Assembly: GCA_023138875.1 (NCBI GenBank)
Contig: JAGLOO010000035.1
Span: forward strand, 1,722 to 65,721
Source: Bacteroidales bacterium
GTDB lineage: Bacteria; Bacteroidota; Bacteroidia; Bacteroidales; GCA-2748055
DNA length: 64,000 bases
Direction of reading: 5' to 3'
The translations under genes were made by a program, and so were the position numbers. Under the pieces are notes generated by a model. The model had not been told where the DNA came from. It did no database searches and was given only the letters and a program-made list of their open reading frames with translations. This document shows positions 36,086 to 56,570 of the stretch, one piece after another (the stretch's first letter is position 1; each line of letters opens with the position of its first letter).

Positions 36086-36895
36086 ATGAACAGACAACTG
36101 ACACCTCAGCAATTGGGGAAAAAACTGAAAGGTATCCGGATGGAAAGTGGCTTTTCGCAGGAGGATATCGCCAGGATGCTGCAGATCTCCAGGTCATCGG
36201 TGGTGCAGATTGAGAAAGGGAACCGACAGATCTCCGCAATTGAATTAGGCATGCTTTCGGAAGCCCTTGGTTTCTCAGCAGATGAATTCCTTTCAGCGGA
36301 GTATGAGGCTTCGACTACGATGACTATCGTCGAAGAACCCGGTGTTGAGACTGATTTGGAGGTAATGAGAGATTCAGTGCCAAAGTTGAAAAGGGCAAAG
36401 CTGGAAATTGTGATTCTTTATATCACAGGCAAATGTGGTGCATTACCGAGGATGGATGTCAACCTGCTTATAAATCTGCTTTATCTCTGTGATTTTAACC
36501 ATTATGAGCTCCATGAGGAGCAGCTTACAGGTCTGCTCTACACCAGACAGGCATTTGGCCCCTCCCCTGAAAATATCACCGGAATCCTGAAAGAAATGGA
36601 AAAGGATGGCAAATTACAGAGGTTCAAAGGCAACTATAAAGGCATTCCGCTTATCAAGTACCTGCCCGGGGTTCATGCCAACCTGATGAGCCTAAGCGCA
36701 GCCGAAAAGGAGGTGATAGACCGGGTGCTTGAGCAGTTCTCTCACTGGCCGGCCAGCGCGCTTAATGCTTATACCCGGGATGAGATTCCTCTGAGGGCAA
36801 CGAAACAGGGAGAGGCGATTAGCTATGAGCTTGCGTTCTATAGGAAATCTCCTCACTCTGTCAGGATCTATGATGAAGACTGGTATGAGTCATGA
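36086..36895 (+). CDS. XRE HTH fused to a Panacea (DUF4065/SocA-like) domain; PanA-type antitoxin architecture
   Basis: The N-terminal HTH reads GFSQEDIARMLQISRSSVVQIEKGNR. The C-terminal block KLEIVILYITGKCG.L.RMDVNLLINLLYLCDFNHYELHEEQLTGLLYTRQAFGP.P has the DUF4065 pattern. Confidence 0.7.
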   Translation: MNRQLTPQQLGKKLKGIRMESGFSQEDIARMLQISRSSVVQIEKGNRQISAIELGMLSEALGFSADEFLSAEYEASTTMTIVEEPGVETDLEVMRDSVPKLKRAKLEIVILYITGKCGALPRMDVNLLINLLYLCDFNHYELHEEQLTGLLYTRQAFGPSPENITGILKEMEKDGKLQRFKGNYKGIPLIKYLPGVHANLMSLSAAEKEVIDRVLEQFSHWPASALNAYTRDEIPLRATKQGEAISYELAFYRKSPHSVRIYDEDWYES

Positions 36896-38228: not shown

Positions 38229-40046
38229 TCAGTCTGATTTGGAAATGAACCGCTCCAGGATCGAGTCGTCGTTGATCTCTTTGGAAAGGGATGAGATGGT
38301 TTCCATGGGCACATCATACAGGTCCAGGACCAGCAATCCGTCCAGGGCATTGTTGAATTTAGGATCGAGGTTGAATCCAATGATCTTGCCATTCAGTTTC
38401 AGGTACCTTTTGAGCAGGATGGGCATGGTGTAATCGTTGGGCTCCACCTCCTTGATAAACCGGTCGAACTTATTCAGGTCATCGGCATTTTCGAGGATGA
38501 TCTCCTCATCCACATTGAACCCGCGTACATTGTATTTTGTACGGGGCCTGACATAGCGTGCCAGTTTGGCATCCAAATGATACTCCTTGATGTACTGCAT
38601 GATTAGTCCGCGTGAGAACTGAGAGAAGTTGTTGCTGATGCTCACCGGTCCGATCAGGTACCTGTACTCGTTGTGCTTCAGCAGGAAATAGAGGATCCCT
38701 TTCCACAGAAGGAAAAGTGGAAGGGGCCTGCGCTGGTACTCCTGCACGATAAATGAACGTCCCAGCTCAAGGGACTGCCTGAGGATGGGAATAAAGCGAC
38801 GGTTCATCCTGAACAGGCTCTGAAGGTAAAATCCCTTGAGCCCGTACCTTCTCAGGATCTCCTTTCCCTTTCCAACCCGGTATGCTCCCACAATTTTATG
38901 ATCCTGGTTATCCCACACAAATAGCTGGTTGTAATAAAGGTCGTACTCATCTAAATCCATGGAATGATTGGTCCCCTCTCCCACTGCCCGGAAGGTCACC
39001 TCCCGCAACCTTCCCAGTTCACTCATGATCCGGGGGATCTCAATACTGGGTGTACAGAACACCTCAAAATTATCGCTGGTAAAGAGTGTGTATTCCTCCC
39101 TGATTTTTTCAATCTCCCGGGAGATCGCATCGGACGGGACTGCATCGGCAATGGGTTCAACCCTTTTTCCCCTGTTGATCCGGGGCCTGAAGAATTTCTT
39201 TACTTCAAGCACTGAACCCAGCGCATAGGTTTTTGCACGCAGGTAGCGTCCATAGGTACTGATATCGGAAAAGTTGTCCTGCTCTTTTACGGTGATGGGA
39301 TTCCCGATGCGGATCCGGATCTTCTTCTGTTTTTTATTGAATATTTCAGATGGAAGGCGAACGGTCCTCAGGGAGGGATGGATCAGTCCCAGGATATGGA
39401 ACAGCCGGGAATTGGATCCCTGGAAATAGACCGGTACAACTGGGACCCTTGCTTTTTTGATCATTTTCATGGCAGGATACTGCCACTCCCTGTCACTGAT
39501 GCCATAGTTATCTTCGTTATAACTGGATACCTCTCCCGCCGGAAAGATCCCCAGCACCTTGCCCATATTTAAATGCTCCAGGGCCATCTTGACCCCTGTC
39601 AGGCTCGAGGCTGCATCCTTTCTTCTTTCGAACGGATTGACCGGAAGCATGTATTCTGAAACCGGTTCGATCTTATTGAGAATGAAATTGGACATCACCT
39701 TGATATCGGGCCTGACCCCGGTGAGTATCTTCACCAGGAGCATGCCGTCAATTCCTCCAAACGGATGGTTTGAAACGGTGATAACGGATCCTTCCAGTGG
39801 GATCTTCTTCAGCTCATCGTCACTCACCTTGTATTCCAGCTGTAATTTTTCGATGAGCGCATCAATGAAATCAAGACCCTGGTGCTGGCTCACCTCGTCG
39901 TATAATTTGTTGATCTTGTTGATGCGGAGTATGGTCATCAACACCTTGGCGGCACTGGTCCCGCCAAACCGCTTCAGCCTGGCAGCCTTAATAATCTCAT
40001 CGGTCTCTATAAGTTTCAATGTTATGGTTTTGGTTTTGCGCATCAC
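38229..40046 (-). CDS. olsF: Bifunctional acyltransferase, OlsF-like (N-terminal PlsC-type O-acyltransferase plus C-terminal GNAT/OlsB-like N-acyltransferase)
   Basis: 605 aa. The N-terminal half carries VSNHPFGGIDG and IFPAGEVS acyltransferase blocks. The C-terminal half has the OlsB/hemolysin-like GNAT pattern (AYRVGKG.EI......GLY.QSLF). The domain order matches the OlsF architecture described in Serratia and Flavobacterium. Confidence 0.65.
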   Translation of the reverse strand: MMRKTKTITLKLIETDEIIKAARLKRFGGTSAAKVLMTILRINKINKLYDEVSQHQGLDFIDALIEKLQLEYKVSDDELKKIPLEGSVITVSNHPFGGIDGMLLVKILTGVRPDIKVMSNFILNKIEPVSEYMLPVNPFERRKDAASSLTGVKMALEHLNMGKVLGIFPAGEVSSYNEDNYGISDREWQYPAMKMIKKARVPVVPVYFQGSNSRLFHILGLIHPSLRTVRLPSEIFNKKQKKIRIRIGNPITVKEQDNFSDISTYGRYLRAKTYALGSVLEVKKFFRPRINRGKRVEPIADAVPSDAISREIEKIREEYTLFTSDNFEVFCTPSIEIPRIMSELGRLREVTFRAVGEGTNHSMDLDEYDLYYNQLFVWDNQDHKIVGAYRVGKGKEILRRYGLKGFYLQSLFRMNRRFIPILRQSLELGRSFIVQEYQRRPLPLFLLWKGILYFLLKHNEYRYLIGPVSISNNFSQFSRGLIMQYIKEYHLDAKLARYVRPRTKYNVRGFNVDEEIILENADDLNKFDRFIKEVEPNDYTMPILLKRYLKLNGKIIGFNLDPKFNNALDGLLVLDLYDVPMETISSLSKEINDDSILERFISKSD

Positions 40047-40353
40047 ATATTACGTCAAGCGCACTACAAAGATAGGGAAAGTCGGTTGTGTGTGGCTCAT
40101 AAAAAAACCTTCCTGTTTTTTTTAATATTCAGATATAACAGAGTTGTTACATTTATCCCTGTGAACAGTACCTCTAAAAATACTCGTATCAGGCTGTCTG
40201 TCTGGTGCTTGTCTCTTCATCTAAAGCTTTGCAGAACCCTCCTGTGTGTAACAAACCTGTTACATTCTGTTTTCGAAAAACGGACCCTGGTCATTTCAAA
40301 CCACAGAGGTTTTCTCCTATCTTTACACACCATTGGAAATCTATTCTTATCTG

Positions 40354-41973
40354 ATGAAACGAATTCACAGGATCCTGCTGGCTCTGTTGTCAGCATTATT
40401 GCTTTCTATCCCTTTTTTCCGTTGGGGTACGGGACTGCTGCTCATGGTTGCATTTGTTCCGTTGCTCTTTGTGGAGGATGCCATAGCCAGGCAGAAAAGT
40501 GAGAAGAAAAAGGACTCCGGGAAGCAAAGTGGATCTGTTGTTTGGTGCACGATCCTCACGTTTGCCGTGTTCGTTATTCTTACAACCTACTGGGTAAAAC
40601 ATGCTGCCCTGGTGGGTATCATTGCGTCGGTGATCGTAAACACAACCTACATGACGCTGACTTTCTGGTTGTTTCATTTCACCAGGCGGAAACTGGGGGA
40701 CCGGTTGGGGTATGCCTCACTGGTGGTTTACTGGATGGCATTTGAATTCCTCTACCTGAGGGCAACCATTAATTTCCCCTGGCTGGTGCTGGGGAATGGA
40801 TTTGCCAATGATGTGATGCTGATCCAGTGGTACGAGGTGACCGGCACACTGGGCGGATCGCTGTGGGTTCTGCTGATGAACCTGCTGATATTCAAACTGA
40901 TCAGGGGATGGCTGACCAACCGTTCATTTGCCGCAAACAGAACACGGATTAGCTGGGTGGTGGGACTATTCCTGATCCCTTTCCTTTTTTCAATGATCAG
41001 GTACATAACCTATGAAGAGCAGGAGGATCCCTATGAAATTGTGGTATTGCAACCCAATATTGACCCCTACCTGAAATTTTCCGATATGCCCCAGGAGGTG
41101 CAAACCTCTCTCCTTCTCCGGATAGCCGATTCTCTGATCACCCCTCAGACAGATTATATTGTTGGGCCGGAGACATTCATTAACAGTGGTGTCTGGGAGG
41201 CGGGGATCGACCGGCATAAGGATGTGGTGGCCCTCAGACAATTTCTCTCTGATTACCCCGACGCCAAACTGGTCATAGGTGCCTCCACCCTTAGGTTGTA
41301 TACCGAGCCATCCCTGTACACATCCACCAGCCGGCCCATCCATAATGGAGAGTACCAGTACGATAGTTTCAACAGTGCATTTCAGCTCGACTCCTCCGGG
41401 GTAATCCCAATTTATCATAAATCGATGCTGGTGGCGGGTGTTGAACACATGCCGTATACACAGTTGCTCGGCTTTCTTAAAAAACTGACCTTAAAACTGG
41501 GAGGAGCCTTTCGCAGCAATGGCACCCAGGAATACCGGGAGGCCTTTGTCTCTCCACAGGATAGTACAAAGGTGGGGCCGGTGATCTGCTGGGAATCAGT
41601 ATTCGGGGAGTATGTGACCGAATATGTGAAGGATGCCGGAGCCCATTTCCTGTTTATTGTGACCAACGACGGATGGTGGAAGAATACCCCGGGCCACCGC
41701 CAGCACAACAGTTATGCCAGGCTGCGGGCCATAGAGACTAGGCGCAGCATTGCACGGAGTGCCAATACCGGCATCAGCTCGCTGATCAACCAGCGGGGCG
41801 AGGAACTGGCACGTGTGGGATGGTGGCAGCGATCCGGCCTGCGCGGCAACCTTAACAAGAACGGCCACATCACCTTCTACGTAAAACACGGCGACTACCT
41901 TGGGCGGATCGGTGTGTTCCTGACGGTTATCCTGCTTCTTTACAGTGTGGTGATCAGGTATATCAGGAGATAA
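40354..41973 (+). CDS. lnt: Apolipoprotein N-acyltransferase
   Basis: The N-terminal half has multiple TM helices. The C-terminal half is a CN-hydrolase domain with the catalytic Cys context VICWESVFGEY and ARSANTGISS. The start could be 40333 or 40354. Confidence 0.85.
   Translation: MKRIHRILLALLSALLLSIPFFRWGTGLLLMVAFVPLLFVEDAIARQKSEKKKDSGKQSGSVVWCTILTFAVFVILTTYWVKHAALVGIIASVIVNTTYMTLTFWLFHFTRRKLGDRLGYASLVVYWMAFEFLYLRATINFPWLVLGNGFANDVMLIQWYEVTGTLGGSLWVLLMNLLIFKLIRGWLTNRSFAANRTRISWVVGLFLIPFLFSMIRYITYEEQEDPYEIVVLQPNIDPYLKFSDMPQEVQTSLLLRIADSLITPQTDYIVGPETFINSGVWEAGIDRHKDVVALRQFLSDYPDAKLVIGASTLRLYTEPSLYTSTSRPIHNGEYQYDSFNSAFQLDSSGVIPIYHKSMLVAGVEHMPYTQLLGFLKKLTLKLGGAFRSNGTQEYREAFVSPQDSTKVGPVICWESVFGEYVTEYVKDAGAHFLFIVTNDGWWKNTPGHRQHNSYARLRAIETRRSIARSANTGISSLINQRGEELARVGWWQRSGLRGNLNKNGHITFYVKHGDYLGRIGVFLTVILLLYSVVIRYIRR
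41913..41966 (+). repeat. Direct repeat copy 1 (last 54 nt before the final two codons of lnt)
   Basis: tgtgttcctgacggttatcctgcttctttacagtgtggtgatcaggtatatcag matches 43201-43254 at 52 of 54 positions. The last 41 nt are identical. Confidence 0.9.
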
Positions 41974-43200
41974 ATACGCATAACGCATAACGCAACTTGC
42001 GTAATAAATAATATATAACTATCTTTACACAAAAAGTGTAAATGAATCCATTTTTATTAAAGGGGTATAAAAGCCCGGAGTATTTCTGTGATAGGGAAGC
42101 AGAAACAGAAACAATCCTCAGAGCAATCAAAAATCAGCAGGATATCACCTTATTTGCGGTTCGAAGAATCGGTAAATCAACATTACTTCACCATGTTTTT
42201 TTTAATTTAAAGAAGGAATTTGATTGTATCTATGCTGATATTTGGGGAACTACCTCTCTTAATGGATTCATTACTGAAACGGCAAACGCAGTTATTCAAA
42301 GCTCAGTATTCTCAAAAAGAAGTATTGGTAGAAAACTGACGGACTTTATAAAATCTATTGGTGCTTCTTTAAGTGTGGGAGTTGACGGAAAACCTTCTCT
42401 AGATATCATGTTCCACGATAAACAACAGGTTTTTAACAGATTGGAAGAGATTTTTATGCTTTTAGAGAACAATAAATTACCGGTAATTCTTGCTTTTGAT
42501 GAATTTCAGGAAATTAAAAATTACTCTGACGGGGTGCCGCTTGAAGCAAAATTGAGGAGTTTAGTACAAAAATATCAGAATATCAGATTTATTTTCAGTG
42601 GTAGTGAACAACATCTTCTGGCAGATATTTTTTCCGATTTACGTAAACCGTTTTATCAATCCACACGAATGATAGAATTGAAGAAAATAGCGGATGAGGA
42701 TTATCAAAACTTTATTCTTAATCACTTTTTAAAAGGGAAAAAGCGAATTAAGGATCAAATTATTGGTTATATATTATCTATTTGTCATGGACATACTTAT
42801 TATATTCAGGCCATCTGCAATTTCCTTTACAGCCAAACCAAAATGCCTGAATCCATTGCTGAGTTTGAAAGACTATATCTTGAATTCATTGCTGAAAAAC
42901 GAGTTTTTTACAGTGAGCTTCCCCAGCGATTAACAAAGCACCAATTCACAACCGTTAAAGCCATTGCCCGTAAAGGCGGTGTTAAAAGTCCAACTTCGGC
43001 TGACTTCATTAAGGAGGCTGAAGTAAATGGAGCAAGCAGCATGCAAAGGATATTAAAGGCTTTAAGAGAAAAACAGGTTATTATCAAAGATCAGGATTCA
43101 TATCGTTTATATGATGTTTTTCTTGAACACTATCTAAAATATATTGTTTGACCAGATCCAATCTAATCAAAACACCAGTGTACTAAACCGAATAACCAAC
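41967..43200 (+). mobile_element. Putative inserted gene cassette (AAA ATPase) bracketed by the 54-bp direct repeats; no recombinase inside
   Basis: The segment between the repeats is visibly AT-rich and holds one gene. Copy 2, read in the lnt frame, encodes VFLTVILLLYSVVIRYIRK plus a stop, which is a displaced alternative lnt 3' end. Confidence 0.4.
42042..43151 (+). CDS. AAA+ ATPase of the archaeal-ATPase/DUF234-like family with a C-terminal wHTH
   Basis: The N-terminus reads NPF...Y.SPEYFCDRE.E. Walker A is VRRIGKSTLL and Walker B is ILAFDEFQE. The C-terminal segment looks like a winged helix (TTVKAIARKGGVKSP...MQRILKALREKQVI). Confidence 0.8.
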   Translation: MNPFLLKGYKSPEYFCDREAETETILRAIKNQQDITLFAVRRIGKSTLLHHVFFNLKKEFDCIYADIWGTTSLNGFITETANAVIQSSVFSKRSIGRKLTDFIKSIGASLSVGVDGKPSLDIMFHDKQQVFNRLEEIFMLLENNKLPVILAFDEFQEIKNYSDGVPLEAKLRSLVQKYQNIRFIFSGSEQHLLADIFSDLRKPFYQSTRMIELKKIADEDYQNFILNHFLKGKKRIKDQIIGYILSICHGHTYYIQAICNFLYSQTKMPESIAEFERLYLEFIAEKRVFYSELPQRLTKHQFTTVKAIARKGGVKSPTSADFIKEAEVNGASSMQRILKALREKQVIIKDQDSYRLYDVFLEHYLKYIV

Positions 43201-43254
43201 TGTGTTTCTGACCGTTATCCTGCTTCTTTACAGTGTGGTGATCAGGTATATCAG
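43201..43254 (+). repeat. Direct repeat copy 2 (displaced lnt 3'-end fragment)
   Basis: See copy 1. It lies 34 nt upstream of the WYL regulator's ATG. Confidence 0.9.
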
Positions 43255-43287
43255 AAAGTAGCACTGCAATGCTATAGTCCAAGGAAA

Positions 43288-43983
43288 ATGAAACGAATTG
43301 AACGTCTAACTGGTATCATAACTTTCCTTCAATCAAGGAATTATACACCCATTGAAAGACTGATTGACAAATTCAATGTGAGTGAAAGAACAATTTACAG
43401 GGATATGGTTTCACTTCATGAGATTGGAGTCCCGATAACATATGAACAAAGCCACGGGTATTATATTCTCGATGATCACTTTATTCCACCTGTTTCATTC
43501 TCGGAAGAAGAGGCCGTGGCCCTGACACTGGCGGGCAGATTAATGAAAAGGTTTTCAGACAATAAGACCAATGAACATTTTGACAATGCGCTTGATAAGA
43601 TTAAATACGCCCTTAGTTCCCGGCAGAAAGAGATTATCGAAACAATCACCGATACAGTCAGGTTCCCTGCACTTGAATCAAGAAGCAATACAGAGAACCA
43701 TCTATATGCGGTTCAGAATGCGATCATTAAAAAGCGGATCCTGCATATTACTTATTTAAACAGACTGGATGAACTGTCTGAAAGAGAGATTGAACCTATT
43801 GGGCTCACTTTCTACTCGAATCAGTGGCACACCATTGCATTTTGCTGGAAAAGAGAAGCCTACAGGGACTTTATTATTTCCAGTATCCAGCAAATCAATA
43901 GCACATCAGTATCGTTTCGAAAACCGGATCACATTACACTGGATGAATATATCCTGGAACTGATAAATTCTTCAGGGCCCTGA
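43288..43983 (+). CDS. YafY-family transcriptional regulator (HTH plus WYL domain)
   Basis: The HTH reads MKRIERLTGIITFLQSR.YTPIERLIDKFNVSERTIYRDM..L.E.GVPI. The WYL block reads ILHITYLNRLDELSEREIEPIGLTFYSNQWHTIAFCWKREAYRDF. The track's upstream extension (43144) is created by the duplicated lnt fragment and was trimmed. Confidence 0.85.
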   Translation: MKRIERLTGIITFLQSRNYTPIERLIDKFNVSERTIYRDMVSLHEIGVPITYEQSHGYYILDDHFIPPVSFSEEEAVALTLAGRLMKRFSDNKTNEHFDNALDKIKYALSSRQKEIIETITDTVRFPALESRSNTENHLYAVQNAIIKKRILHITYLNRLDELSEREIEPIGLTFYSNQWHTIAFCWKREAYRDFIISSIQQINSTSVSFRKPDHITLDEYILELINSSGP

Positions 43984-44039
43984 CATACTGTTGTCAGTAT
44001 GAAGCTCTATATTTACTTACGGACCAATACTATTATATC

Positions 44040-44297
44040 ATGAAAACTTACAGAAACTGCCAAAGCTGCGGAATGCCGATGAAAAAAGATCCTCAGGGTG
44101 GCGGAACAGATTCAGACGGTTCCCGGAACCCGAAATTTTGTAGTTATTGTTATGTATCCGGGGCTTTTGTCCAGCCTGAAATGACAGTGGATGAAATGAA
44201 AGTCCTTGTTAAAGGAAAAATGATAGAGATGGGATTCCCAAAATTCCTTTCAGGTTTCTTCACCAAAGGCATCCCAAAACTTGAACGATGGAAATAA
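44040..44297 (+). CDS. Putative zinc-ribbon domain protein
   Basis: C.SCGMPM......GG.......N..FCSYCY..G.F....T..EM is the pattern of the small 'putative zinc ribbon' family. Confidence 0.65.
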   Translation: MKTYRNCQSCGMPMKKDPQGGGTDSDGSRNPKFCSYCYVSGAFVQPEMTVDEMKVLVKGKMIEMGFPKFLSGFFTKGIPKLERWK

Positions 44298-44392
44298 GCA
44301 ATCGCCATGTCAATTATTGATTTACTTGCCTCATCTCAGGGATCGAGAAAGCATCTCAAAGAAAGAGGCTGGAAAAGATCTTAAAATCCATA

Positions 44393-46768
44393 TCATAAGA
44401 CCACCATCGACCTGCTGGTTGATCCTTCCTTTGTTATCAGTCTATAAATGTATACTCCTGGTCTGACTGGCTGGTTATAATCATCTGTCCTGTCCCAGAC
44501 CATGTGATGTATTCCTTTATCTCTGAACCCTTCAAGAAGCGTTTTGATCTTTCTCCCACTCATATCATATACAGCCAAAGAGGCTGTGCCCGGTTCTGTC
44601 ATCCTGAAACGAATTTCAGTTTGCATGGAGAAAGGATTGGGATGGTTTTGTAATAATTGTATTGACGGATTTGTTACAGATGGCTGATAAACAGAGGAAA
44701 CAGTAGAAAGATCAATATGGACAATTGTTCCTGCCCGGCCTGCAGTCCACCCGGTTTTAGCATCAGGGAAGGATACAGATTTCAGGGCGGTCAGGGTTGC
44801 TTCATGATCAATCTTCTCCCATGAGGCTCCGCCATCCAATGTATGGTAGATATTGCCCCACTCTCCCACCATCCAACCGTTTAAGGAATCTATAAAACAG
44901 AGATCGGTGAAGGTCCGGCCGGTTACATAATTCTCAGTCCAGTTCTCACCCCCATCGGTTGTATTAAAAGTGCTACCACCACATATTGTACCATGAAGAT
45001 TATTGGAAAAACCGATATCATATGCATTTCTCCAAAATTCGGGTTTCGGTATTTCCATCCATGTGTCTCCTCCATCCTCTGTTTTCAACAGGTCTTGCTG
45101 AGCTCCAAGGATCCAACCGGTGTTCTCGTCCTGGAAAAGGAGGGTGCCTGATTTGATGGCAAATCCGACGGTAATGGTTGCCTGCTGACCTGTACTCACC
45201 ATTTCCCAGGTTGCACCGGCATTGATGGTTTTAAGGAGCTGTACATGGCCCTCCGGATAAGTGAATACATCCGTCAGTGCCCATCCGTTCTGATTGTCAA
45301 GAAAAAAGAGGTCGACGATTTGACCCTCGGAAACGCCCTGACCCTGTTGTGTCCATGTTTTGCCTCCATCGCCGGTAAACAATATTCCCGAAGTTTGAGA
45401 TGCACTGACATCCACTACATATCCCACCGCCCAGCCGGTGGTTTCGTTCACAAATTGAACCGCATTAAGTCTGAGAGCGACAGCCCACACATCCGATCGA
45501 AAAGAGTACTGTTCCTTCCAGTGCTCTCCGCCGTCATCGGTATGCAGGATGACCTGCGCCCACTTGTCGGGACTGGTACTTTTCCGACCGACCACCCACC
45601 CAAGAGAGGGCGTGATAAAGAACACATCCTCAAAATTGTACAGTGTATCGATCAGGACCTGTGTGAATAAATGTTCTCCATATCTATCCCCATAATCTCC
45701 CCAGGGATCGGTTGATTCCACCTTGTATCCGTCATCTCCCATCGCAATGACCTTATCTTCAAATACAGCCAGTCCGTACAATCCCAGAGAATAGTTCTCT
45801 TCCATCCGGATTTTTTGCCATGTATCTCCTCCATCCATGGTCCTGAATACGGGCGGTCCCCACGCGGCAATATAGTCCGCTCCCACTGCATAACCTTTCA
45901 GCGAATCGACAAAATCAACCTGCCAGAGAACTTTATCTTCTCCCATACGCTCCCAGCTATCCCCGCCATCTGAAGTCCGGAATATGGCTCCTCCTTTTTC
46001 ATCCGAGCGCGATGCAAAACCAACCATAAAACCATGGGCCTCATCCGGGAATTCAATATCGGTAAAAACCATTTTCAGATCAGGACTATACTTTTCTATC
46101 CATGTCTCACCTCCATCATCGGTAAAGTAAGCCGCACAATAGGTATCGGCAAATACATCGATATTTTCATTCTTCACTCCCAGCGCCCAACCTTCCATGT
46201 TGTTTTTAAAATAGAGGCGGTGAATAATCCCGGCATCAGGCGGAAGGTCCTGCTCCACCCAGTTTTCTCCGCCATTTGAAGTATGCCATACCCTGCCTCT
46301 CCACGCATCGGGTTCATCAAAAAGATAATGTATCTCCTCATTGGCCACCACCCATCCATGGGATGCATCTGGAAAATAGATGGTTTTAAAATTCAGTGCC
46401 GTACCAATATCCTTTTTGCTCCAGCTGGTCCCCCCATCGTCAGAATGCAAAAGAAGTCCGGTATTGCCAGCTGCCCAGCCATGGTCCGGGTCCGGGAAAT
46501 AAACATCCCACAGATCATCCGATACAGATACACCTTGCCGGTTCCAGCTGAGGCCTCCGTCGATGGTCTTCAGAATGGTACTTCTGTAAGCTTTCAGCGA
46601 CTGATCCCAGTGGGATTCACCAACAGCTATGCCCACATCACTATCGATCATGTGAAGTCCTTTTATATCATATTCCGTTTGCATAAATTGTTGGGTAACT
46701 GTCTGGGCATATAGTACGATGGAACTGCTCAATGCCAGAAGGTAAAGCATATGTCTAAGTCTATTCAT
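44393..46768 (-). CDS. Double beta-propeller BNR/Asp-box (Ycf48/sortilin-like) protein with T9SS type A C-terminal sorting domain
   Basis: It has a signal peptide and about 12 Asp-box motifs (S.DGG.[ST]W). The terminal ~89 aa (44396-44662) are LLQNHPNPFS..TEIRFR.......LAVYDMSGRKI..L........H...WD.......PGVYIYRL........RSMVVL. Confidence 0.88.
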   Translation of the reverse strand: MNRLRHMLYLLALSSSIVLYAQTVTQQFMQTEYDIKGLHMIDSDVGIAVGESHWDQSLKAYRSTILKTIDGGLSWNRQGVSVSDDLWDVYFPDPDHGWAAGNTGLLLHSDDGGTSWSKKDIGTALNFKTIYFPDASHGWVVANEEIHYLFDEPDAWRGRVWHTSNGGENWVEQDLPPDAGIIHRLYFKNNMEGWALGVKNENIDVFADTYCAAYFTDDGGETWIEKYSPDLKMVFTDIEFPDEAHGFMVGFASRSDEKGGAIFRTSDGGDSWERMGEDKVLWQVDFVDSLKGYAVGADYIAAWGPPVFRTMDGGDTWQKIRMEENYSLGLYGLAVFEDKVIAMGDDGYKVESTDPWGDYGDRYGEHLFTQVLIDTLYNFEDVFFITPSLGWVVGRKSTSPDKWAQVILHTDDGGEHWKEQYSFRSDVWAVALRLNAVQFVNETTGWAVGYVVDVSASQTSGILFTGDGGKTWTQQGQGVSEGQIVDLFFLDNQNGWALTDVFTYPEGHVQLLKTINAGATWEMVSTGQQATITVGFAIKSGTLLFQDENTGWILGAQQDLLKTEDGGDTWMEIPKPEFWRNAYDIGFSNNLHGTICGGSTFNTTDGGENWTENYVTGRTFTDLCFIDSLNGWMVGEWGNIYHTLDGGASWEKIDHEATLTALKSVSFPDAKTGWTAGRAGTIVHIDLSTVSSVYQPSVTNPSIQLLQNHPNPFSMQTEIRFRMTEPGTASLAVYDMSGRKIKTLLEGFRDKGIHHMVWDRTDDYNQPVRPGVYIYRLITKEGSTSRSMVVL

Positions 46769-47090
46769 ATCTGAGATGTTTTGGATTTATCAATAAAGGA
46801 TCCATTATAAGATGATATGTCTAAGGAATTAAAAACGTTAGCAATTTGAAGAACAGAATTGAAACTAAATATAGAATTTGTTGCATTTATATCATAAATT
46901 GTAATATCCATCAATTTTGATTGATTAAACCACTACCTATGATCCTTTAGCAACAAAAAATGATGCTAATAATAATTAGAAACGAATTCGATATCCAATA
47001 CTGTACAGATTATAAGGCTTTTCGTTTTGTTCATGACATTGATTTCAATTCTCCAAAAAACTATTTTTATACCCTAACTCAACTATCCTC

Positions 47091-50000
47091 ATGCAATTAA
47101 GTCGAAAATTTCTCTTGCCGGTATCTATATCTGTACTGCTATTCTTCATTCAGCCAGGTGCATTTGCATTTAACGGATATTCCCCTCCCGATACAACCAA
47201 AGCACATCATATCTATACGAAAGCTATTGAGAAGTATGAAGAGGGTGATCTTTCTGAGGCTATAGGAATGTTTGATGACGCAGCCAGGCAGTTCAGGAAA
47301 AAAAAGATGTGGGAAAGGGTGATTGATTGTCACCTGTACATAATCAAAGCCAGGAGTTTGAATGCAGATGAGGAGGGGCTTATCGACTTCTGCAGGGCGA
47401 CTCAGGAATTATCTGAGGAGAAGCTTGGAGAAGACCACCCGGTTACAGGAGATTGCCACAACAGGCTTGGAGAACTTTACTACTATGGGCATCAGCATGA
47501 CCTGGCAAAGAAAAGCTTTGAAAGTGCCATGAAAATCTACTCCTGTGATCCGGGTCCTGAATCATTGGCTATGGCAAAGCTTTATTCAAATATGGGAGGA
47601 TTGAAAATGAATCTTTCTGAATACGACAGTGCAAAGATCTTTATTCAAAAGGCACTCGATATACAATTGGAACTGCTTGATACACTGGATATAAAATTAT
47701 TGCACACCTATAATACATATGGGATTTTGCACTATTATCTGGGGAATATGGACCAGGCCATTGACAATTTCGATAAGACTTTACAAATTCGACTTAATAA
47801 ATATGGAGAAACCCACCACGAGGTTGCTAAGAGCTACAATAACCTTGGTAGTGCCTATGAGAAAAAGAAGGCGTTTCAAAGGGCAGTGGACCTTCATCAA
47901 AATGCATTGAATATCCGCAGGACTACGCTTGATAGCCTGCATCCAAATATTGCATTGTCATTGAATAACCTCGCGAATGCCTGGTTCGGTCTGGGCGAAT
48001 ATGAAAAATCGAACGAATACCATTTTGAAGCATTGCGGTTAAGAAGAAGGATCTTTGGCGACGATCACAGAGATATCGCCATGAGTTATGCAAACATTGG
48101 ACATAATTTGCTCCTGCAGGACGATCCGGTTCAAGCAACATACTATTTCAGGAAGGTAGTCCCCATCATGATCAACCTTTACGGAACTGATCATCTGTTA
48201 ACCTCGGATGCATACGCAAACACAGGATTACCTTTCTACTATACCGGTGCGTATGACAGTGCATTCCATTACCTGTTCAAGGCGCTGAGGATCAGGGAAA
48301 ATATTCAGGATGGCATCAATTTGAGTGTGGCCAGGAGTTATAATAATATCGGAGCCCTGTATAAAGAAAACCGTGATTACGAGCTCGCGTTATCCTATTA
48401 CAACAAAAGTGCTGAGATCTATGAAATCCTTCTCGGTGAGAATTGTAATCCTTTGGCCGGATCCTATAATAACATAGGGGAAGTATACCTTGAAACAGGC
48501 GACTTGGATATATCTTATGATTATTTCAGGAAATCATTGGATATTGACATTTCGAATTTCGGTCCCGATAATCCTCAGTTGGCCGGCAGATACCTTAATC
48601 TGGGAGCGGTAGCTGCCGAGATGGGCAGACATGCAGAATCAATTGAATATAATAAAAAGGCCCTGAAATACCATGTAAGCGCTTATGGTGAGAATAACAC
48701 GCTGGCCAGCTCTATCTATAGCAATATGGCCATGGATTATGTTGAGATGGATAGCCTTGATATAGCTTTGGAATACCTGGACCATGCCATTGACATACTA
48801 AAAGAGATCCATGGCGAAAACCATTTTGGCCTCTCCTCTCATTATACAAAACTGGGACAAGTACTGGCAGATATTGGTGAAAATGAGGAAGCTTTGAAGA
48901 TTTTTCTGAAGGGATTGTCGGTTAATTATTTCGGGGAAATAGATGTGGCTAACCTGGAGGATACGGATACTGAAAAGATAAAGGACAAAAACCGGTTTAT
49001 TGAATCCCTGGTTGCCATCACCGAGTTTAATAAGTCACAACTCTCTGAAAATGATAGAAGTAAGCTGCTGGCAAAGAACCTGATTCTTTACGAACTTATC
49101 GCCGATATTACTGTAAAACTCCGGGAGACATACAAGTTGGAAATATCGAAGTTACAAGCTTTAAATGAGTGGGATTACCTCTATTCGAAAGCCTTTGAAA
49201 CAGCAGCCGGCTTGTATGAAATAACTGGTGATGAGCTTGATTTCAATAAAGCATTTCGTTTTGCAGGCCTGAAGAAGAGTTCCGCTTTAACTGATGCAAT
49301 TCTTATGAGCCAGGCGATGGAGAATTCAGGTATTCCTGATACTGTTGTCCTCGCAGAAAAATCCCTTCATTCAAGATTGGAAGGGCTAAGGCAAAACCTT
49401 CTTGAAACAGACAACACCGATGTTGCAGGTGACAGGATCAAGACAATTGAAAACGAGATAAACAGCACAACCATCAAGCTAAATGAGTTATATATTTTCA
49501 TCGAGAAGGAGTATCCGGATTACAACAACCTTAGATCCCGTTATCCTGAATATATGCCTGCAGAGATCAGTGAATTATTGGATAACAAAACTCTGTTGCT
49601 TGATTTTATTGTTGTCGAATCTTCCGTTTATTCACTGGTAATAAGCAAAAAAGGCAGGTGGCTTGAAAAAGCAGAGGTACCGGCAGATTTCAATGTCAGG
49701 GTGAACGACCTTCTCAGATCGGTGAAGAAATATCGAACAGGAGACTTCATTTCTCAATCAAAGGAGGTTTACAACATGCTGCTACAACCCCTGGAAAAAC
49801 ATTTCACGGGAATTGAAAAAATCATTACAATCCCGGATAGTTATCTGCTCTTATTGCCATTCGACATATTGATCAATAGTGAGAATACAGAGAACAACCT
49901 TGACCTGACATCCCAGGACTATCTCATTAAACGGTTCGAAACTGTTTCACACTACTCCACCGACCTGTGGGTAAGATCTTACCATAAAAATCATACTGAA

Positions 50001-50741
50001 AGCACAGTTGATTCATGCTTTTCAGGATTCCTTGGATTCGCTCCAGTATTTGATGCCAGCCCGGATAATCAGGAGGTTATCATGACTGAACGAGGCTCTT
50101 TATATACCGACAGGGCCGTGGTAGACAGGATGTCACTGCGGGAACTGCCTTTTTCCGGGCAGGAGATTGATACTCTCGTGTCTCTGTTTTCCCGACATGG
50201 AATAGAGGCCAGGGGAGTGTTAAGATCCGAAGCTACTGAAGAGATGTTCAGGGCATCCTCAGGGAACTATAAGTATGTCCACCTCGCAACTCATGGATTG
50301 ATAAATCCTGAAAAACCGGAACTATCAGGACTGGTTTTCTGGAAAGAGACCGTTGATACTATTGGTGATATGTCACAATTACTTATAGCCGAGAAAGAGA
50401 ATGACGGGGTGCTCTATACAAAGGAGATCTATAACCTTGATCTGAATGCCAGCCTGGTTACACTTAGCGCATGTGAAACAGGTGCCGGTAAGCTGGTAAA
50501 AGGGGAAGGGTTGCTGTCATTTGTTCGGGGATTCACCTATTCGGGGATTCCCAACATGTTGATCTCCTACTGGAAAGTTAATGATAAAACCACTGTAGAT
50601 TTTATGTATGATTTCTACGAGGGAGTACTTTCGGGAGACTCATACTCAGCGGCTTTAAGAAAGGCTAAACTTGCTGCCATATCAAACAAATCCACATCAT
50701 TCCCCGCCTCGTGGGGAAACTTTGTTCTTATCGGAAACTGA
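47091..50741 (+). CDS. Exported tetratricopeptide-repeat protein with C-terminal CHAT (caspase-like) protease domain
   Basis: The N-terminal signal peptide is MQLSRKFLLPVSISVLLFFIQPGAFA. About 550 aa of TPR units follow (recurring A.SYNN[IL]G..Y....Y..A..Y). The C-terminal CHAT domain has a His/Cys dyad context YVHLATHG and LVTLSACETG. Confidence 0.85.
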   Translation: MQLSRKFLLPVSISVLLFFIQPGAFAFNGYSPPDTTKAHHIYTKAIEKYEEGDLSEAIGMFDDAARQFRKKKMWERVIDCHLYIIKARSLNADEEGLIDFCRATQELSEEKLGEDHPVTGDCHNRLGELYYYGHQHDLAKKSFESAMKIYSCDPGPESLAMAKLYSNMGGLKMNLSEYDSAKIFIQKALDIQLELLDTLDIKLLHTYNTYGILHYYLGNMDQAIDNFDKTLQIRLNKYGETHHEVAKSYNNLGSAYEKKKAFQRAVDLHQNALNIRRTTLDSLHPNIALSLNNLANAWFGLGEYEKSNEYHFEALRLRRRIFGDDHRDIAMSYANIGHNLLLQDDPVQATYYFRKVVPIMINLYGTDHLLTSDAYANTGLPFYYTGAYDSAFHYLFKALRIRENIQDGINLSVARSYNNIGALYKENRDYELALSYYNKSAEIYEILLGENCNPLAGSYNNIGEVYLETGDLDISYDYFRKSLDIDISNFGPDNPQLAGRYLNLGAVAAEMGRHAESIEYNKKALKYHVSAYGENNTLASSIYSNMAMDYVEMDSLDIALEYLDHAIDILKEIHGENHFGLSSHYTKLGQVLADIGENEEALKIFLKGLSVNYFGEIDVANLEDTDTEKIKDKNRFIESLVAITEFNKSQLSENDRSKLLAKNLILYELIADITVKLRETYKLEISKLQALNEWDYLYSKAFETAAGLYEITGDELDFNKAFRFAGLKKSSALTDAILMSQAMENSGIPDTVVLAEKSLHSRLEGLRQNLLETDNTDVAGDRIKTIENEINSTTIKLNELYIFIEKEYPDYNNLRSRYPEYMPAEISELLDNKTLLLDFIVVESSVYSLVISKKGRWLEKAEVPADFNVRVNDLLRSVKKYRTGDFISQSKEVYNMLLQPLEKHFTGIEKIITIPDSYLLLLPFDILINSENTENNLDLTSQDYLIKRFETVSHYSTDLWVRSYHKNHTESTVDSCFSGFLGFAPVFDASPDNQEVIMTERGSLYTDRAVVDRMSLRELPFSGQEIDTLVSLFSRHGIEARGVLRSEATEEMFRASSGNYKYVHLATHGLINPEKPELSGLVFWKETVDTIGDMSQLLIAEKENDGVLYTKEIYNLDLNASLVTLSACETGAGKLVKGEGLLSFVRGFTYSGIPNMLISYWKVNDKTTVDFMYDFYEGVLSGDSYSAALRKAKLAAISNKSTSFPASWGNFVLIGN

Positions 50742-50747
50742 TTTGTC

Positions 50748-51290
50748 TCAGAACCGGTATCCAACTTTAATCCCGGCTTTATCCATGTAGGCCTTAGGAT
50801 CAAAGAAAAGAAATACACCCCTGGTAGCTGAAATACCGACATAGAAATCCCTAATAAAATACTGGAAGGATACCTCAACCGCCCAATAGGACCAGATCTC
50901 ATTATAATCATCAGGAAATAACACATCATAAAGAAAGTTCAGCTGGAATCTGAAATTCTTTGAGAAATGAAGCATATATGACGGCGAGAGACCCAGGAAG
51001 AACCTGTTTTTCTCCGGATGACTCCAACCATCACCCGTAAGAACATACTCGCGATAAAAACCGGTACGTACACCGGCATAAAAGCGGTGATCTCCAAAAC
51101 CGAAAATGTCCCGCTCGTAACCAATGGAAAAGTCAGGATTGGAAGTATAATACTTCTCAGTTCCTCTTTTTTCAAGGTGATGATTCAGAAGTATGAATAC
51201 ATTGTTCTTCTGAAGGTATTCTTCCTTTGGCTGCCCTGTGGCAGTCTGGAAAAGAAAAACGAAGATGAGTATGACCGGTATCTTCTTCAT
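50748..51290 (-). CDS. Small exported protein, outer-membrane beta-barrel-like (hypothetical)
   Basis: It has a signal peptide, alternating aromatic/Gly strands and a C-terminal ..GIKVGYRF with terminal Phe. Confidence 0.55.
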   Translation of the reverse strand: MKKIPVILIFVFLFQTATGQPKEEYLQKNNVFILLNHHLEKRGTEKYYTSNPDFSIGYERDIFGFGDHRFYAGVRTGFYREYVLTGDGWSHPEKNRFFLGLSPSYMLHFSKNFRFQLNFLYDVLFPDDYNEIWSYWAVEVSFQYFIRDFYVGISATRGVFLFFDPKAYMDKAGIKVGYRF

Positions 51291-51321
51291 GGTTATTGCT
51301 CTGATTTTGCTGTTTCAATAA

Positions 51322-51888
51322 TCAGTTGAGAATAAATCTGTATCCGATTGAAGCCGTTATCGGGAATAAACCGGTTTGAAACTCAGCACCATAGTCGTTC
51401 TCCAGGTGCTCTATATAATCATCGACCTCTGAACTTCTGATGGGCACAAATATGGCAAATGACCAATAGCCCCTTTTCAAAGGATTGAGGTGAAAGTCAA
51501 TCCCACCCCCCAGGGTGGGACCATAAAACAGTCTGTTGTGCTGCGATGCATTCAATACAGCTATGGCTGCATTGTATCCATACATGACCAGTCCAAATGG
51601 GTGAACTTTAGAATCAGGCTTATCAGGTACATACCTGAATTTCACACCTGCGTTAAATCCCACGCCGGCAAGGGCATACCCCACTCCACCAAACAGTCCG
51701 ACACTTTTAGCCGGATAATACGTCACATTTCCCCCAAAGCCTCCATAATCCAGCCCTCCGCCAATTCCGATTGATATCTGATCCAATTGCCTGGTTGTTT
51801 GAAATGGATATTGTATTGATGCATCTTGGGCATTTAGCTGAAATGCCAGCAGCAAGATCAATGCAGTAATTTTGAGGTTTCTCATCAT
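51322..51888 (-). CDS. Small exported protein, outer-membrane beta-barrel-like (hypothetical)
   Basis: It has a signal peptide, Gly/Tyr-rich strands (GGGLDYGGFGGNVTYY, GVGYALAGVGFNAGVKFRY) and the C-terminal SIGYRFILN. Confidence 0.55.
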   Translation of the reverse strand: MMRNLKITALILLLAFQLNAQDASIQYPFQTTRQLDQISIGIGGGLDYGGFGGNVTYYPAKSVGLFGGVGYALAGVGFNAGVKFRYVPDKPDSKVHPFGLVMYGYNAAIAVLNASQHNRLFYGPTLGGGIDFHLNPLKRGYWSFAIFVPIRSSEVDDYIEHLENDYGAEFQTGLFPITASIGYRFILN

Positions 51889-51927
51889 GCTTTTTTTAGG
51901 TTCAGTATTTATGTTTATAAGCCAGGT

Positions 51928-52581
51928 TCACCTGTTAAGTAAGTCAAACCTAACCATTATTTTTAATAATGTCCAACTGCTATTTAAGTCATTATCACCA
52001 AAAAAGTACCGGTAGGATGTTCCGACACCAATCAGATTCTGAAAGAAAAAAAAGTTTATTTCAGGTTCCACAAAGAACCCACCTTTGAACTTGAATTTCT
52101 CCACCTCACAGTCCTTACAATTTACAATCTCCTTCCGTCCGGAAAAACCTTCAAATCCAAAAGAGGTTCCTGCAGATACATTGAGATTCCGGTCTTTAAT
52201 CAATCCGAGCCCGGGTGTCCATATTCCGGCTTTGAAATCGTAGCTTAAGGTAGTAAACGAAGATTCTAATGTCCCCCAGGTTGTACTTTGTGTAAATGTG
52301 TTATAGTCTTTTATTCCTCCATACCCTAACGCACCAGAAATTCCTATCAAATGATATAATTTTGTGCATATCCCAATCTCGGTCATCCATGCTTTATTTG
52401 CAATATCCAGTTCATCAGATTTTCCATCCCTGATCGTTGTCATCGTAGGGGTTGTCATATACATGATAAACTGATGCTTTCCCCCATGTTCCTGGCATAA
52501 GGCATCGGGATGGATGGCGGACATTAAGAATATCAAAACATTCAAAAAAAGGATCCGGATTTCAGGTCTGGTATTCATCAT
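51928..52581 (-). CDS. Small exported protein, outer-membrane beta-barrel-like (hypothetical)
   Basis: It has an N-terminal hydrophobic leader and beta-strand periodicity. It is co-directional with its neighbours and separated from them by short gaps. Confidence 0.5.
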   Translation of the reverse strand: MMNTRPEIRILFLNVLIFLMSAIHPDALCQEHGGKHQFIMYMTTPTMTTIRDGKSDELDIANKAWMTEIGICTKLYHLIGISGALGYGGIKDYNTFTQSTTWGTLESSFTTLSYDFKAGIWTPGLGLIKDRNLNVSAGTSFGFEGFSGRKEIVNCKDCEVEKFKFKGGFFVEPEINFFFFQNLIGVGTSYRYFFGDNDLNSSWTLLKIMVRFDLLNR

Positions 52582-52692
52582 AGCTGTTCAGTTTTAAAGG
52601 TCAGTTTTCAACATTGCTTTCTTTTGATATGTTACGGGAATAGAAAACGTTACTTTAATCTGTACAACAATAAAGATAGTAACGGAATAGAT

Positions 52693-53451
52693 TTACCGGA
52701 TATAGATCTTTCCCGTGTGCAATGTCTCCTCATCATCGGTCAGTTGCCAGTAATACAAACCTTTTGGAAACTGCATGCAGATTATATAGGGTGAGGCTAT
52801 TTTGTCCTCGCGGAGAACTACGCCGCTGTTATTCAGGATTGCAAGAAATAGGGAATCGTTTTCCACTCCCCGAAATCTGACTTCAACAGATGAACCGGAT
52901 ATGCATTCGACACTGTCAGCTGGTGATTCCACTGTCAGATTACCAGAGCGTATATTAATCCCTATCTGGTTTTCATAGAAGGGATAAGCCTGGTATTCTG
53001 CCAGATATGTAATTTCCTTTTTTGGGATTATAATGACCTCCTCCTCACTTTTTTCAGTCAGGCCGGGAACATCATCCTCAGCTGGCTGAGGAGCCTTTAA
53101 TGTATCCGTTTGAATCTCTTCTAAAGCAATTTGAGAGGATCTGGATGGTGTGTCGCGGTTTGGAAGAAGGAAGAGTCCGACCACCAATGCTACACCTGCC
53201 GCGGCAGCAACATACCAGAAAATGAAAAAATGTTTTTTTAAGAGATCCCCTTTATGCCCACCAGTACGAAATGTTTCTCCGGCCGAATATTTCTGAATGG
53301 CATTGATGATCTCTTCCCTTTCCATCAGTTCGTTTCGGCATACAGCACAAGACAACAGATGCTCTTCAAAAATGACAGCCTCCTGATCTGATAACTCATT
53401 TCTGATAAACCTGTCAATCAATTCATCTCTATCTATCTTATTACAATCCAT
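52693..53451 (-). CDS. zf-HC2 anti-sigma factor with one TM helix and a C-terminal beta-sandwich resembling a T9SS type A sorting domain
   Basis: The zinc motif is EEHLLSCAVCRNEL and the TM is FFIFWYVAAAAGVALVVGLFLL. The last ~65 aa (VEVRFRG....LFLAILNNSGVVL.......PKGLYYWQL.......TGKIYIR) follow the strand pattern of the in-window type A CTD but lack its NPF motif. Confidence 0.7.
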   Translation of the reverse strand: MDCNKIDRDELIDRFIRNELSDQEAVIFEEHLLSCAVCRNELMEREEIINAIQKYSAGETFRTGGHKGDLLKKHFFIFWYVAAAAGVALVVGLFLLPNRDTPSRSSQIALEEIQTDTLKAPQPAEDDVPGLTEKSEEEVIIIPKKEITYLAEYQAYPFYENQIGINIRSGNLTVESPADSVECISGSSVEVRFRGVENDSLFLAILNNSGVVLREDKIASPYIICMQFPKGLYYWQLTDDEETLHTGKIYIR

Positions 53452-53473
53452 TGTCAGCAGCTATTTGATCTGT

Positions 53474-54340
53474 TCATTCCTTGATATGACTTTGTAGTTG
53501 CATGGCTTCAATCCTATGGCATATATCTGCAATTCTCCTGAGGGCATGATACTTTTTTAGTCTGCAATTGCCATCGGAGATATGAAGGGCTTTAGCAATG
53601 TTGGATAGTTTCTCTTCGTGGAAATAATAGTGTTTCAGTATATATCTTTCATCTTTCGAAATCGAATCATGCATGGCTTTTTCAATATAATAGTACCTGT
53701 CATCTGCCTCAGATCTTTCTTCTTCAAAAGGTGTCAGCAAATGGTCCAATTCCATCTCTGTCGATCTTTTGTTGTGCTGCATTTTCTTCCTGTAGTATTC
53801 AAAGGTTTTGAGTTCAAGTATCCTGAAATAGTAGGATTTAAATGCCCGGGAAGTTTCAAAACAGAGTTTTTTTGCTGCTATCTTCTCAACGAATGTCAGC
53901 ATCGATTCCTGAAAGATTTCTCTGGCAACATCGGCCACTATTTTCTTGTCTGAAAGCCATTTGGCTGCGTATATGAATAATCTTTCATTTACCCTCCTCC
54001 AGGCAACGCTATCATTCACTGTTATCAAATTGTAAAACCCCTTAAACTGACCTGTGACAATCTCATTGGTATACTTCAAAATTACCTCTTTGTACTCTTG
54101 GTATTTATCAATTCTCAGCTTTCCGGACAACACTTCATGTCTGAACCTTGAATAAACCTTCTTGATGATATATTCAGAATCTCCGATCCCATCTTCCGTT
54201 GCAATCCAACCTGTTTCTATCCTTTCACTCCTTGCCCACCTGGAAATAATAATTCCAATATGTGACCTTATGCTCAGCCACGTGTTTTCATTGAGACCCG
54301 TAAGCTCATTTATGACTGTATTGAAATCATCAAGTTCCAT
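53474..54340 (-). CDS. Sigma-70-family (ECF-like) factor with a ~125-aa N-terminal extension
   Basis: The region 2-like block is DVAREIFQESMLTFVEKI......F....AFKSYYFRILE. Region 4 is ISKDERYILKHYYFHEEKLSNIAKALHISDGNCRLKKYHALRRI. The first ~125 aa have no motif I recognise. Confidence 0.65.
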   Translation of the reverse strand: MELDDFNTVINELTGLNENTWLSIRSHIGIIISRWARSERIETGWIATEDGIGDSEYIIKKVYSRFRHEVLSGKLRIDKYQEYKEVILKYTNEIVTGQFKGFYNLITVNDSVAWRRVNERLFIYAAKWLSDKKIVADVAREIFQESMLTFVEKIAAKKLCFETSRAFKSYYFRILELKTFEYYRKKMQHNKRSTEMELDHLLTPFEEERSEADDRYYYIEKAMHDSISKDERYILKHYYFHEEKLSNIAKALHISDGNCRLKKYHALRRIADICHRIEAMQLQSHIKE

Positions 54341-54879: not shown

Positions 54880-54880
54880 C

Positions 54881-56406: not shown

Positions 56407-56570
56407 ATCAGTCTTTTATACAAATTTATAATTTATCCTGAGCTTCACCTCAACAATTTTTTCCACTGCTGTCGGGTTGGTCTTTCCGTCTTTCCAGTTT
56501 TTTCATTTTTTTCCTCTGTTATGCAACCTCGGAAACCCTAACTTGTCTTTCCAATTGAAAGCATAATACT

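Follow-up and report, generated by a model that had tools for sequence, protein, structure and literature searches.

An ATPase gene of foreign origin between two copies of the lnt tail in a Bacteroidales genome: a candidate homology-anchored insertion at a variable site

The stretch of DNA examined here (hereafter the window) comprises 64,000 nucleotides (nt) of contig JAGLOO010000035.1 from the Bacteroidales bacterium assembly GCA_023138875.1. Within it, a gene for an AAA+ ATPase lies directly behind lnt, the apolipoprotein N-acyltransferase gene, and in front of a gene for a WYL-domain regulator, and is bracketed by a 54-nt direct repeat of the lnt 3' end. Compared to a real lnt-WYL junction, the ATPase gene together with one copy of the tail (1,288 bp) is inserted DNA. 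The inserted DNA is foreign and has been transferred between genomes, its junction is old and shared with a second lineage, and its ends do not resemble those of a mobile element. The explanation that is somewhat favoured here is a homology-anchored insertion with displacement of the resident 3' end, which would have occurred in a variable hot spot behind lnt without a dedicated site-specific recombinase.

The two copies of the repeat (41913-41966 and 43201-43254) match at 52 of 54 positions (96% identity), and this is the single repeat of its kind reported by the repeat search. Its distal 41-mer occurs exactly twice in the window, compared to 0.00 occurrences expected from 100 dinucleotide shuffles, and the repeat was the top and sole significant match between the 400-nt flanks of the ATPase gene (score 48, compared to at most 11 in shuffles). 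Both mismatches (TTC/TTT and ACG/ACC) are synonymous in the lnt reading frame. Copy 1 is the tail of a complete lnt ending in ...IRYIRR-TAA (stop codon at 41971-41973). Copy 2, read in the lnt frame, encodes VFLTVILLLYSVVIRYIRK followed by TAG (43259-43261), thus ending in ...IRYIRK-TAG; most lnt homologues terminate in RYIRK or RYIKK. The left edge of copy 2 (...CGAATAACCAAC joined to TGTGTT...) is a novel junction rather than a k-mer switch. Twenty-six nucleotides separate the stop codon of copy 2 from the ATG of the regulator gene, which is followed by a Zn_ribbon_2 gene. These results agree with the initial annotation, which had described a 54-bp duplication with two mismatches and an identical 41-nt core at the same coordinates, and which had identified lnt, ATPase and WYL genes that Pfam and NCBIfam profiles also recognize. 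The features of the locus are listed below; all lie on the plus strand except the last, which has no strand.

40354-41973, plus strand: lnt (TIGR00546, 201 bits; LNT_N and CN_hydrolase), 82% amino acid (aa) identity to relatives L009/L011; the reading frame is open from a TTG at 40333, and the ATG at 40354 agrees with the starts of homologues
41913-41966, plus strand: repeat copy 1, within the 3' tail of the working lnt (repeat search, shuffles)
41967-41976, plus strand: lnt end unique to copy 1 (...G AGA TAA) plus ATA, contiguous with the ATPase segment in L001 and also aligning with the native lnt end of L011
41977-42041, plus strand: ATPase upstream region, with CGCATAA CGCATAA CGCAACTTGCG (41977-42001) and a TATCTTTACAC box (42020-42030), 89% identical between the window and L001
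42042-43151, plus strand: AAA+ ATPase gene with a predicted C-terminal winged helix, 369 aa, 34% GC (PF01637, AAA_14, AlphaFold2 model, fold matches, dN/dS)
43152-43200, plus strand: 49-nt spacer between the ATPase stop codon and copy 2, its final 12 nt conserved in L107
43201-43254, plus strand: repeat copy 2, a 5'-truncated lnt tail (repeat search), its junction common to L107
43255-43261, plus strand: K-TAG end of the displaced lnt tail (...A AAG TAG), matching the lnt end before WYL in empty-site genomes (L105: ...CAGGTATATCAGAAAATCATAG)
43288-43983, plus strand: HTH_11 + WYL regulator, 231 aa (Pfam; PADLOC WYL model PDLC01457, E = 1e-46), with orthologues right after lnt in L103-L106
44040-44297, plus strand: Zn_ribbon_2 protein (Pfam), the constant partner of WYL, paired with it in L103, L104, L105 and L108
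41977-54879, no strand: 12.9-kb variable block between the lnt stop codon and a flavin-reductase gene (BLAST of L009/L011 and six more relatives), with the ATPase insertion nested at its left edge

Homologous loci are cited by L numbers. Contigs reached through WYL homologues carry lnt directly followed by the orthologous WYL-Zn_ribbon pair, with a gap of 24 nt in L103, 14 nt in L104 and 6 nt in L105/L106. Because lnt stands directly before WYL in L103-L106, the ATPase gene and one tail copy are an insertion relative to this junction. Downstream in L104, a BNR gene associated with the type IX secretion system (minus strand) and then a TPR-CHAT gene follow as they do in the window, and aa identity between the two loci is 83% for the acyltransferase upstream of lnt, 67% for lnt, 69% for WYL, 81% for Zn_ribbon_2, 62% for BNR and 74% for TPR-CHAT. 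The lnt of L105 ends in ...GGTCAGGTATATCAGAAAATCATAG at the place where the window has copy 2 (...TGATCAGGTATATCAGAAAGTAG). The K-stop of copy 2 therefore occupies the position of the real lnt end before WYL in empty-site genomes, as expected from the earlier description of copy 2 as a displaced lnt end. The initial annotation had also proposed a search for an empty site and had named, as its counter-case, an arrangement shared by all relatives without empty sites; empty sites exist. Its further suggestion that the insertion turned an lnt fragment into the WYL promoter region is wrongly framed, as an lnt tail has always preceded WYL and the duplication preserved this order. No empty-site relative with more than 90% identity was found, and the nearest relatives by backbone (L009/L011) lack the whole variable block. 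Among 66 other lnt loci, none had a second tail, and no stretch in the 4 kb behind the gene matched the tail of that same lnt over more than 15 nt.

The GC content of the ATPase segment is 34%, compared to 51% for the window lnt (51-52% for the lnt genes of the hosts); a single ATPase gene in AT-rich DNA without an integrase or transposase is also what the initial annotation had reported. The segment is foreign and has moved horizontally between genomes, since the ATPase gene is 93.4% identical in nt (94% in aa) to that of L001 compared to only 73% for the adjoining acyltransferase and 71% for lnt. With a synonymous divergence (dS) of 0.24 and a dN/dS of 0.13 between the two copies, the gene is functional. 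In L001 it is located between a divergent acyltransferase gene and the lnt start, that is, in the lnt 5' leader and not after lnt. The window and L001 are homologous from within the final 21 nt of lnt (ATCAGGTATATYAGGAGATAA) up to the ATPase stop codon; the right flanks past this codon are unrelated (global alignment p = 0.9), which gives no support for a shared right end. To the left of this in L001, 13 nt (TATACCCTTGTAA) agree fully with the L011 lnt tail, and L001 carries in total a 33-nt lnt-tail stub (TATACCCTTGTAATCAGGTATATTAGGAGATAA) before the ATPase promoter, reading YTLVIRYIRR-stop. L102 is the nearest relative sampled for the host of L001; its lnt ends in YSIVFRYIKK and has no ATPase gene on either side, which argues that the stub is foreign to L001's host and travelled with the gene. 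Both known insertions adjoin lnt, which fits targeting by lnt homology. Two other accounts of L001 were set aside. The sequence ATCAGG at both of its junctions is not a common crossover core, as the 14 nt to the left (TTATACCCTTGTAA) match the L011 lnt tail exactly and are thus part of an lnt tail and not of the host leader. A tandem lnt-ATPase-lnt duplication is unlikely, as the contig sequence continues across the ATPase gene and the lnt end of L102 is unlike the stub.

In the proposed sequence of events, the incoming DNA would have carried an lnt-tail stub adjoining an ATPase gene with its own promoter and operator, and the stub would have paired with the resident lnt tail as a homology anchor. 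One possible route is a single crossover with a circular molecule, and another is homology-facilitated illegitimate recombination (HFIR; defined in PMC3240628) of a linear one. The second end would have been joined without homology between 43200 and 43201, leaving lnt complete and followed by the cargo, with a displaced, 5'-truncated tail still located before WYL. An anchor is indeed present on the incoming segment, as the lnt tail is attached to the ATPase gene both in the window and in L001 (33 nt, foreign there). There is no lnt similarity to the left of 43201, which suggests that this junction is illegitimate, and the repeat search revealed neither terminal inverted repeats nor a short target duplication at the ends of the segment. 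A displacement model based on HFIR has been put forward for type VI secretion system (T6SS) effector arrays and Rhs orphans (PMC5361080). As in Rhs/CdiA orphan tips and the T6SS effector-immunity arrays of Vibrio cholerae, the incoming DNA here would have homology to a resident gene end and bring a new end together with cargo, the former 3' end and the gene behind it would be retained further downstream, and there is no recombinase, inverted repeat or short target duplication. Unlike in those systems, the resident gene is a housekeeping lipoprotein acyltransferase rather than a polymorphic toxin, only 54-62 nt are duplicated with one displaced tail and no array, and the cargo is one ATPase gene without a tie to lnt function.

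The age of the event can be judged from L107, which comes from a different sample and whose WYL gene is 87% identical in nt to that of the window (dS 0.59). Upstream of WYL, L107 reads ...CGAATAATCAAC and, across the junction, TGTGTTCATGACGG...CAGATATATCAGAAAGTAA, and the window reads ...CGAATAACCAAC and then TGTGTTTCTGACCG...CAGGTATATCAGAAAGTAG; the two share the junction CGAATAAYCAAC to TGTGTT. The event thus predates the split of these lineages and is not recent. Copy 2 differs between L107 and the window at 16 of 54 positions, compared to two of 54 between the window's own copies, where 8-9 differences would be expected (Poisson P ~0.005-0.02). In addition, the block TACAGTGTGGTGA occurs in both window copies and in no relative. 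The simplest reading of these sequence patterns is gene conversion between the two tail copies in the window, so that a single event before the window/L107 split could have been followed by conversion that keeps the copies nearly identical. Recombination between the repeats may also have led to loss in some lineages.

Several points weigh against a homology-anchored insertion. An anchor of 54-62 nt is short for RecA-dependent recombination. The proposal needs a previous host in which the ATPase gene already stood just after an lnt, and it leaves the first such junction unexplained. L001, where the tail stub lies 5' of lnt and a 4-nt AATT microhomology is possible, needs a separate illegitimate event and not the same crossover. 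One old junction pair does not separate HFIR or a single crossover from site-specific recombination. Finally, WYL nt identity is 86-88% in all pairs among the window (filled), L107 (filled) and L105 (empty), and two filled states and one empty state among three nearly equidistant lineages would also fit repeated excision or integration.

It is possible, though unlikely, that the segment is a decayed or trans-mobilised site-specific element, in which case the tails would be the attL and attR sites of a tyrosine or serine recombinase encoded elsewhere and the cassette would excise and re-integrate at the lnt tail. This corresponds to the reading in the initial annotation, of which the insertion, the empty site and the mobility are borne out while the site-specific, trans-mobilised cassette is not. 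A comparable class is that of cis-mobilizable elements (CIMEs), which retain attL and attR after loss of their integration genes (PMC5704250). As in CIMEs and 3'-end islands (PMC5704250), foreign DNA is bracketed here by a direct repeat of a gene 3' end, one copy lying inside the target gene, which is left complete, and the segment contains no integrase. Unoccupied sites equivalent to attB exist (L103, L104, L105/L106), the nearly equidistant filled and empty lineages would suit such a process, the near-identity of the tails could reflect recent recombination between them, and the cassette and the last 21 nt of lnt are common to the window and L001. In addition, on the Bacteroides plasmid pCACC737_3 (L109, 3995-6152), a distant ATPase homologue (33% identity) stands immediately before a gene that carries a site-specific integrase annotation.

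However, no integrase, transposase or recombinase domain was found among the approximately 40 large open reading frames (ORFs) scanned across the window, so that, unlike for CIMEs, no cognate integrative and conjugative element, integrative and mobilizable element, or tyrosine or serine recombinase is seen there. Recurrent use of the site by related elements is likewise missing among the 66 other lnt loci (0/66 with a second tail). Independent copies with the same ends and insertion point were not found either: L107 represents the same event, with a single junction shared by both filled lineages that fits one old insertion, and L001, the only other copy, is located in the lnt leader rather than at the lnt tail, is not flanked by a repeat, and has no right end in common with the window. 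The initial annotation had suggested looking for other cassette copies flanked by the same core, but besides L001 none of 17 further ATPase-family loci in unrelated contexts has flanking repeats (0/17; the one exception, L099, reflects a repeated operator motif). Across the ATPase family, only approximately 100 nt upstream of the gene are conserved and nothing is conserved downstream, and, unlike CIMEs, the segment has no conserved ends. Other categories of mobile DNA were also rejected. An integron cassette does not fit, as there is no inverted repeat at the cassette ends, no integrase was found, and the gene has its own promoter region; insertion sequences, miniature inverted-repeat transposable elements and transposons do not fit, as terminal inverted repeats, a short target-site duplication and a transposase are lacking and the 54-nt repeat is target coding sequence.

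The second alternative concerns the order of events and requires a wider view of the locus, as the 12.9-kb variable block is a larger context that the initial annotation had missed. The closest backbone relatives, L009 and L011 (flanks 85-97% identical in nt, lnt 82% in aa), have a flavin-reductase gene 9 nt past the lnt stop codon, whose counterpart in the window starts at 54881; the sequence 41977-54879 is entirely absent from both, and a flavin-reductase gene also stands just after lnt in six more relatives. In the window the block encodes the ATPase (with tail copy 2), WYL, Zn-ribbon, BNR and TPR-CHAT proteins, three proteins of unknown function, and anti-sigma-like and sigma-like proteins; the TPR-CHAT protein (47091-50741), beside the sigma-/anti-sigma-like genes, has 1216 aa. 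The same spot holds glyoxalase and VWA genes in L012 and a fragment of an IS91-type transposase gene (Y2_Tnp) in L010. Since the genes after lnt differ among L012, L010 and L009/L011, the site immediately behind lnt is a hot spot of gene gain and loss. A third lnt-tail copy was sought at 43300-56000 on both strands, where only chance 9-10-mers and no repeat at the right edge of the block were found; tandem accretion of the block was rejected accordingly. A further 1.17 kb (55372-56538), between the flavin-reductase and extracytoplasmic function sigma factor genes, is extra compared to L011 and contains two ORF fragments on the minus strand (one at 56029-56406 containing a GEPNGGKSN P-loop, the other at 55392-55715 containing TTHNP) that look like a broken gene for an AAA_15/21-type ATPase.

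In the reverse order, the ATPase gene would already have stood after a native lnt (...RR-TAA-ATA), and the WYL block would have arrived later with a 62-nt stub of a donor lnt, so that copy 2 would be a hitch-hiker that was later overwritten by copy 1 through gene conversion. This order appears quite improbable, although several observations point towards it. The stretch 41977-54879 is missing from L009/L011, whose alignment to the window extends across the lnt stop as far as 41976; for the ATPase-less L011, the match to the end of the window lnt reaches 3 nt past the stop codon (AGGAGATAAATA compared to AGGAATTAAATA). Compared to L105, WYL is 85% identical in aa and lnt only 71%, which suggests that the WYL block has been exchanged between lineages, and the gene content of L012 and L010 marks the spot after lnt as a hot spot. 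On the other hand, L104 is collinear with the window from the acyltransferase gene to TPR-CHAT at an even 62-83% aa identity, as would fit lnt and the WYL block having been inherited together vertically for a long time. No genome with the order lnt-ATPase-flavin reductase was found, and the L011 end could equally be the deletion scar of a filled ancestor. The RR-TAA end may thus be native, with the WYL block arriving second with a donor lnt stub, but the collinearity with L104 favours the option in which this end came with the ATPase gene and L011 represents a later deletion. A mosaic lnt was rejected, as its affinity in a sliding-window comparison to L011 and L105 does not change upstream of the last ~35 nt. 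In L108 (4418-6012), a WYL-Zn_ribbon_2 pair (81% and 90% identical in aa to those of the window) follows a methyltransferase gene and not lnt, and the pair is therefore found in more than one context.

The properties of the ATPase bear on a further possibility. The protein matches PF01637 (ATPase_2; 38.5 bits, compared to a cut-off of 33.2) and AAA_14, and its AlphaFold2 model (pLDDT 83, pTM 0.79) retrieved 2QEN (E = 5e-16) and 2FNA (E = 3e-14; TM 0.65) in Foldseek, followed by Orc1/Cdc6 and origin recognition complex (ORC) subunits; sequence matches to the PDB reached 7e-5 and 3e-4. The modelled architecture is that of an AAA+ core, a lid and a C-terminal winged helix, which is ORC/Cdc6-like and not that of a recombinase. 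The archaeal proteins PAB2304 (2QEN) and SSO1545 (2FNA) are alike in the ATPase_2 profile, fold and winged helix, while the family described here is bacterial (Bacteroidota) and only ~19% identical to the solved proteins. A CGCA-N3-TGCG-type motif occurs in two to three copies within ~100 nt upstream of every ATPase-family gene examined (the window, L001-L006 and L089-L101), with a motif of the form 3 x TTTCRCATATTGCG in more distant family members, and in a comparison of 18 family loci such repeats precede the gene in all of them. A TTTACAC-type box is also located upstream in 10 of these 18 loci, and a box of the TATCTTTACAC type occurs in the window and about half of the loci; we take the box at 42020-42030 to be a Bacteroidota-type -7 promoter element. 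To our knowledge, conserved upstream repeat motifs have not been described for archaeal proteins of the PAB2304/SSO1545 type. The CGCA...TGCG repeats are probably an operator, perhaps for the winged helix of the ATPase itself, and they may be iteron-like.

If the ORC/Cdc6-like protein were an initiator acting on iteron-like repeats, the ATPase unit might represent a selfish episome of minimal size, a small circle that enters chromosomes via a captured stub of a host gene tail. Such an episome is highly improbable, but if real it would explain the travelling stub, the near-identical tails, and the presence of filled and empty sites among near relatives. The plasmid and phage collections contained only distant homologues of the ATPase (<40% identity). 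The PADLOC candidate defence system PDC-S01 was rejected as an identity for the protein, as it matches with only 20-24 bits in the N-terminal P-loop region and gives no full-length match, and a literature search on PF01637/DUF234 turned up only unrelated DUF234x papers. In L005 (1127-2155), an 86%-identical copy of the gene between GH28 and carbonic anhydrase genes has an internal deletion or frameshift and is called as 304 aa, indicating that copies of the ATPase gene decay. Around the gene in the window, there is no terminator between lnt, ATPase and WYL, a scan for sigma-70 promoters and terminators remained at background, and an Rfam search of 39900-44500 (E <= 1) gave no match.

The explanation that the duplication is an assembly artefact, with two strains mis-joined at a shared k-mer, is scarcely credible: the window is part of a short-read metagenome bin, and the identical L007 and L008 (100%) stem from the same assembly and lend no independent support, but a strain switch cannot create the novel junction at the left edge of copy 2, two positions differ between the copies, and the independently assembled L107 has the same junction and tail before its WYL gene, which contradicts the artefact that the initial annotation had named as its possible refutation.

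Other parts of the window also contain accessory or variable sequences. The intergenic region between the acyltransferase gene and lnt includes ~200 nt (40105-40304) that are extra compared to L009/L011 and hold two 18-nt palindromic boxes (TAACARNNYTGTTACATT, at 40136 and 40249); similar boxes occur in L014, and there is no Rfam match. Further genes include a toxin-antitoxin-like pair (DUF6577 and AbiEii; 18674-20546), an antitoxin-like gene of the HTH_3-SocA/Panacea type (36086-36895), and an ORF of 5277 aa (112-15945) that begins near the left edge of the window.

Overall, the locus looks like a recombination scar of an already known kind rather than a new type of mobile cassette, with tails that show concerted evolution. 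It provides a natural example of an accessory gene slotted behind an essential-type gene with damage to neither neighbour, where, owing to the duplicated tail, lnt is complete and the WYL gene retains its original upstream DNA. It also shows that the near-identity of such short duplicated tails can persist long after they were formed. In genome scans, a direct repeat of a gene 3' end around foreign DNA is insufficient for an attL/attR call. The analysis also highlights a widespread family of ORC/Cdc6-like ATPases with conserved upstream repeats, and the locus marks the spot directly after lnt as a hot spot of gene exchange in this group of Bacteroidota.

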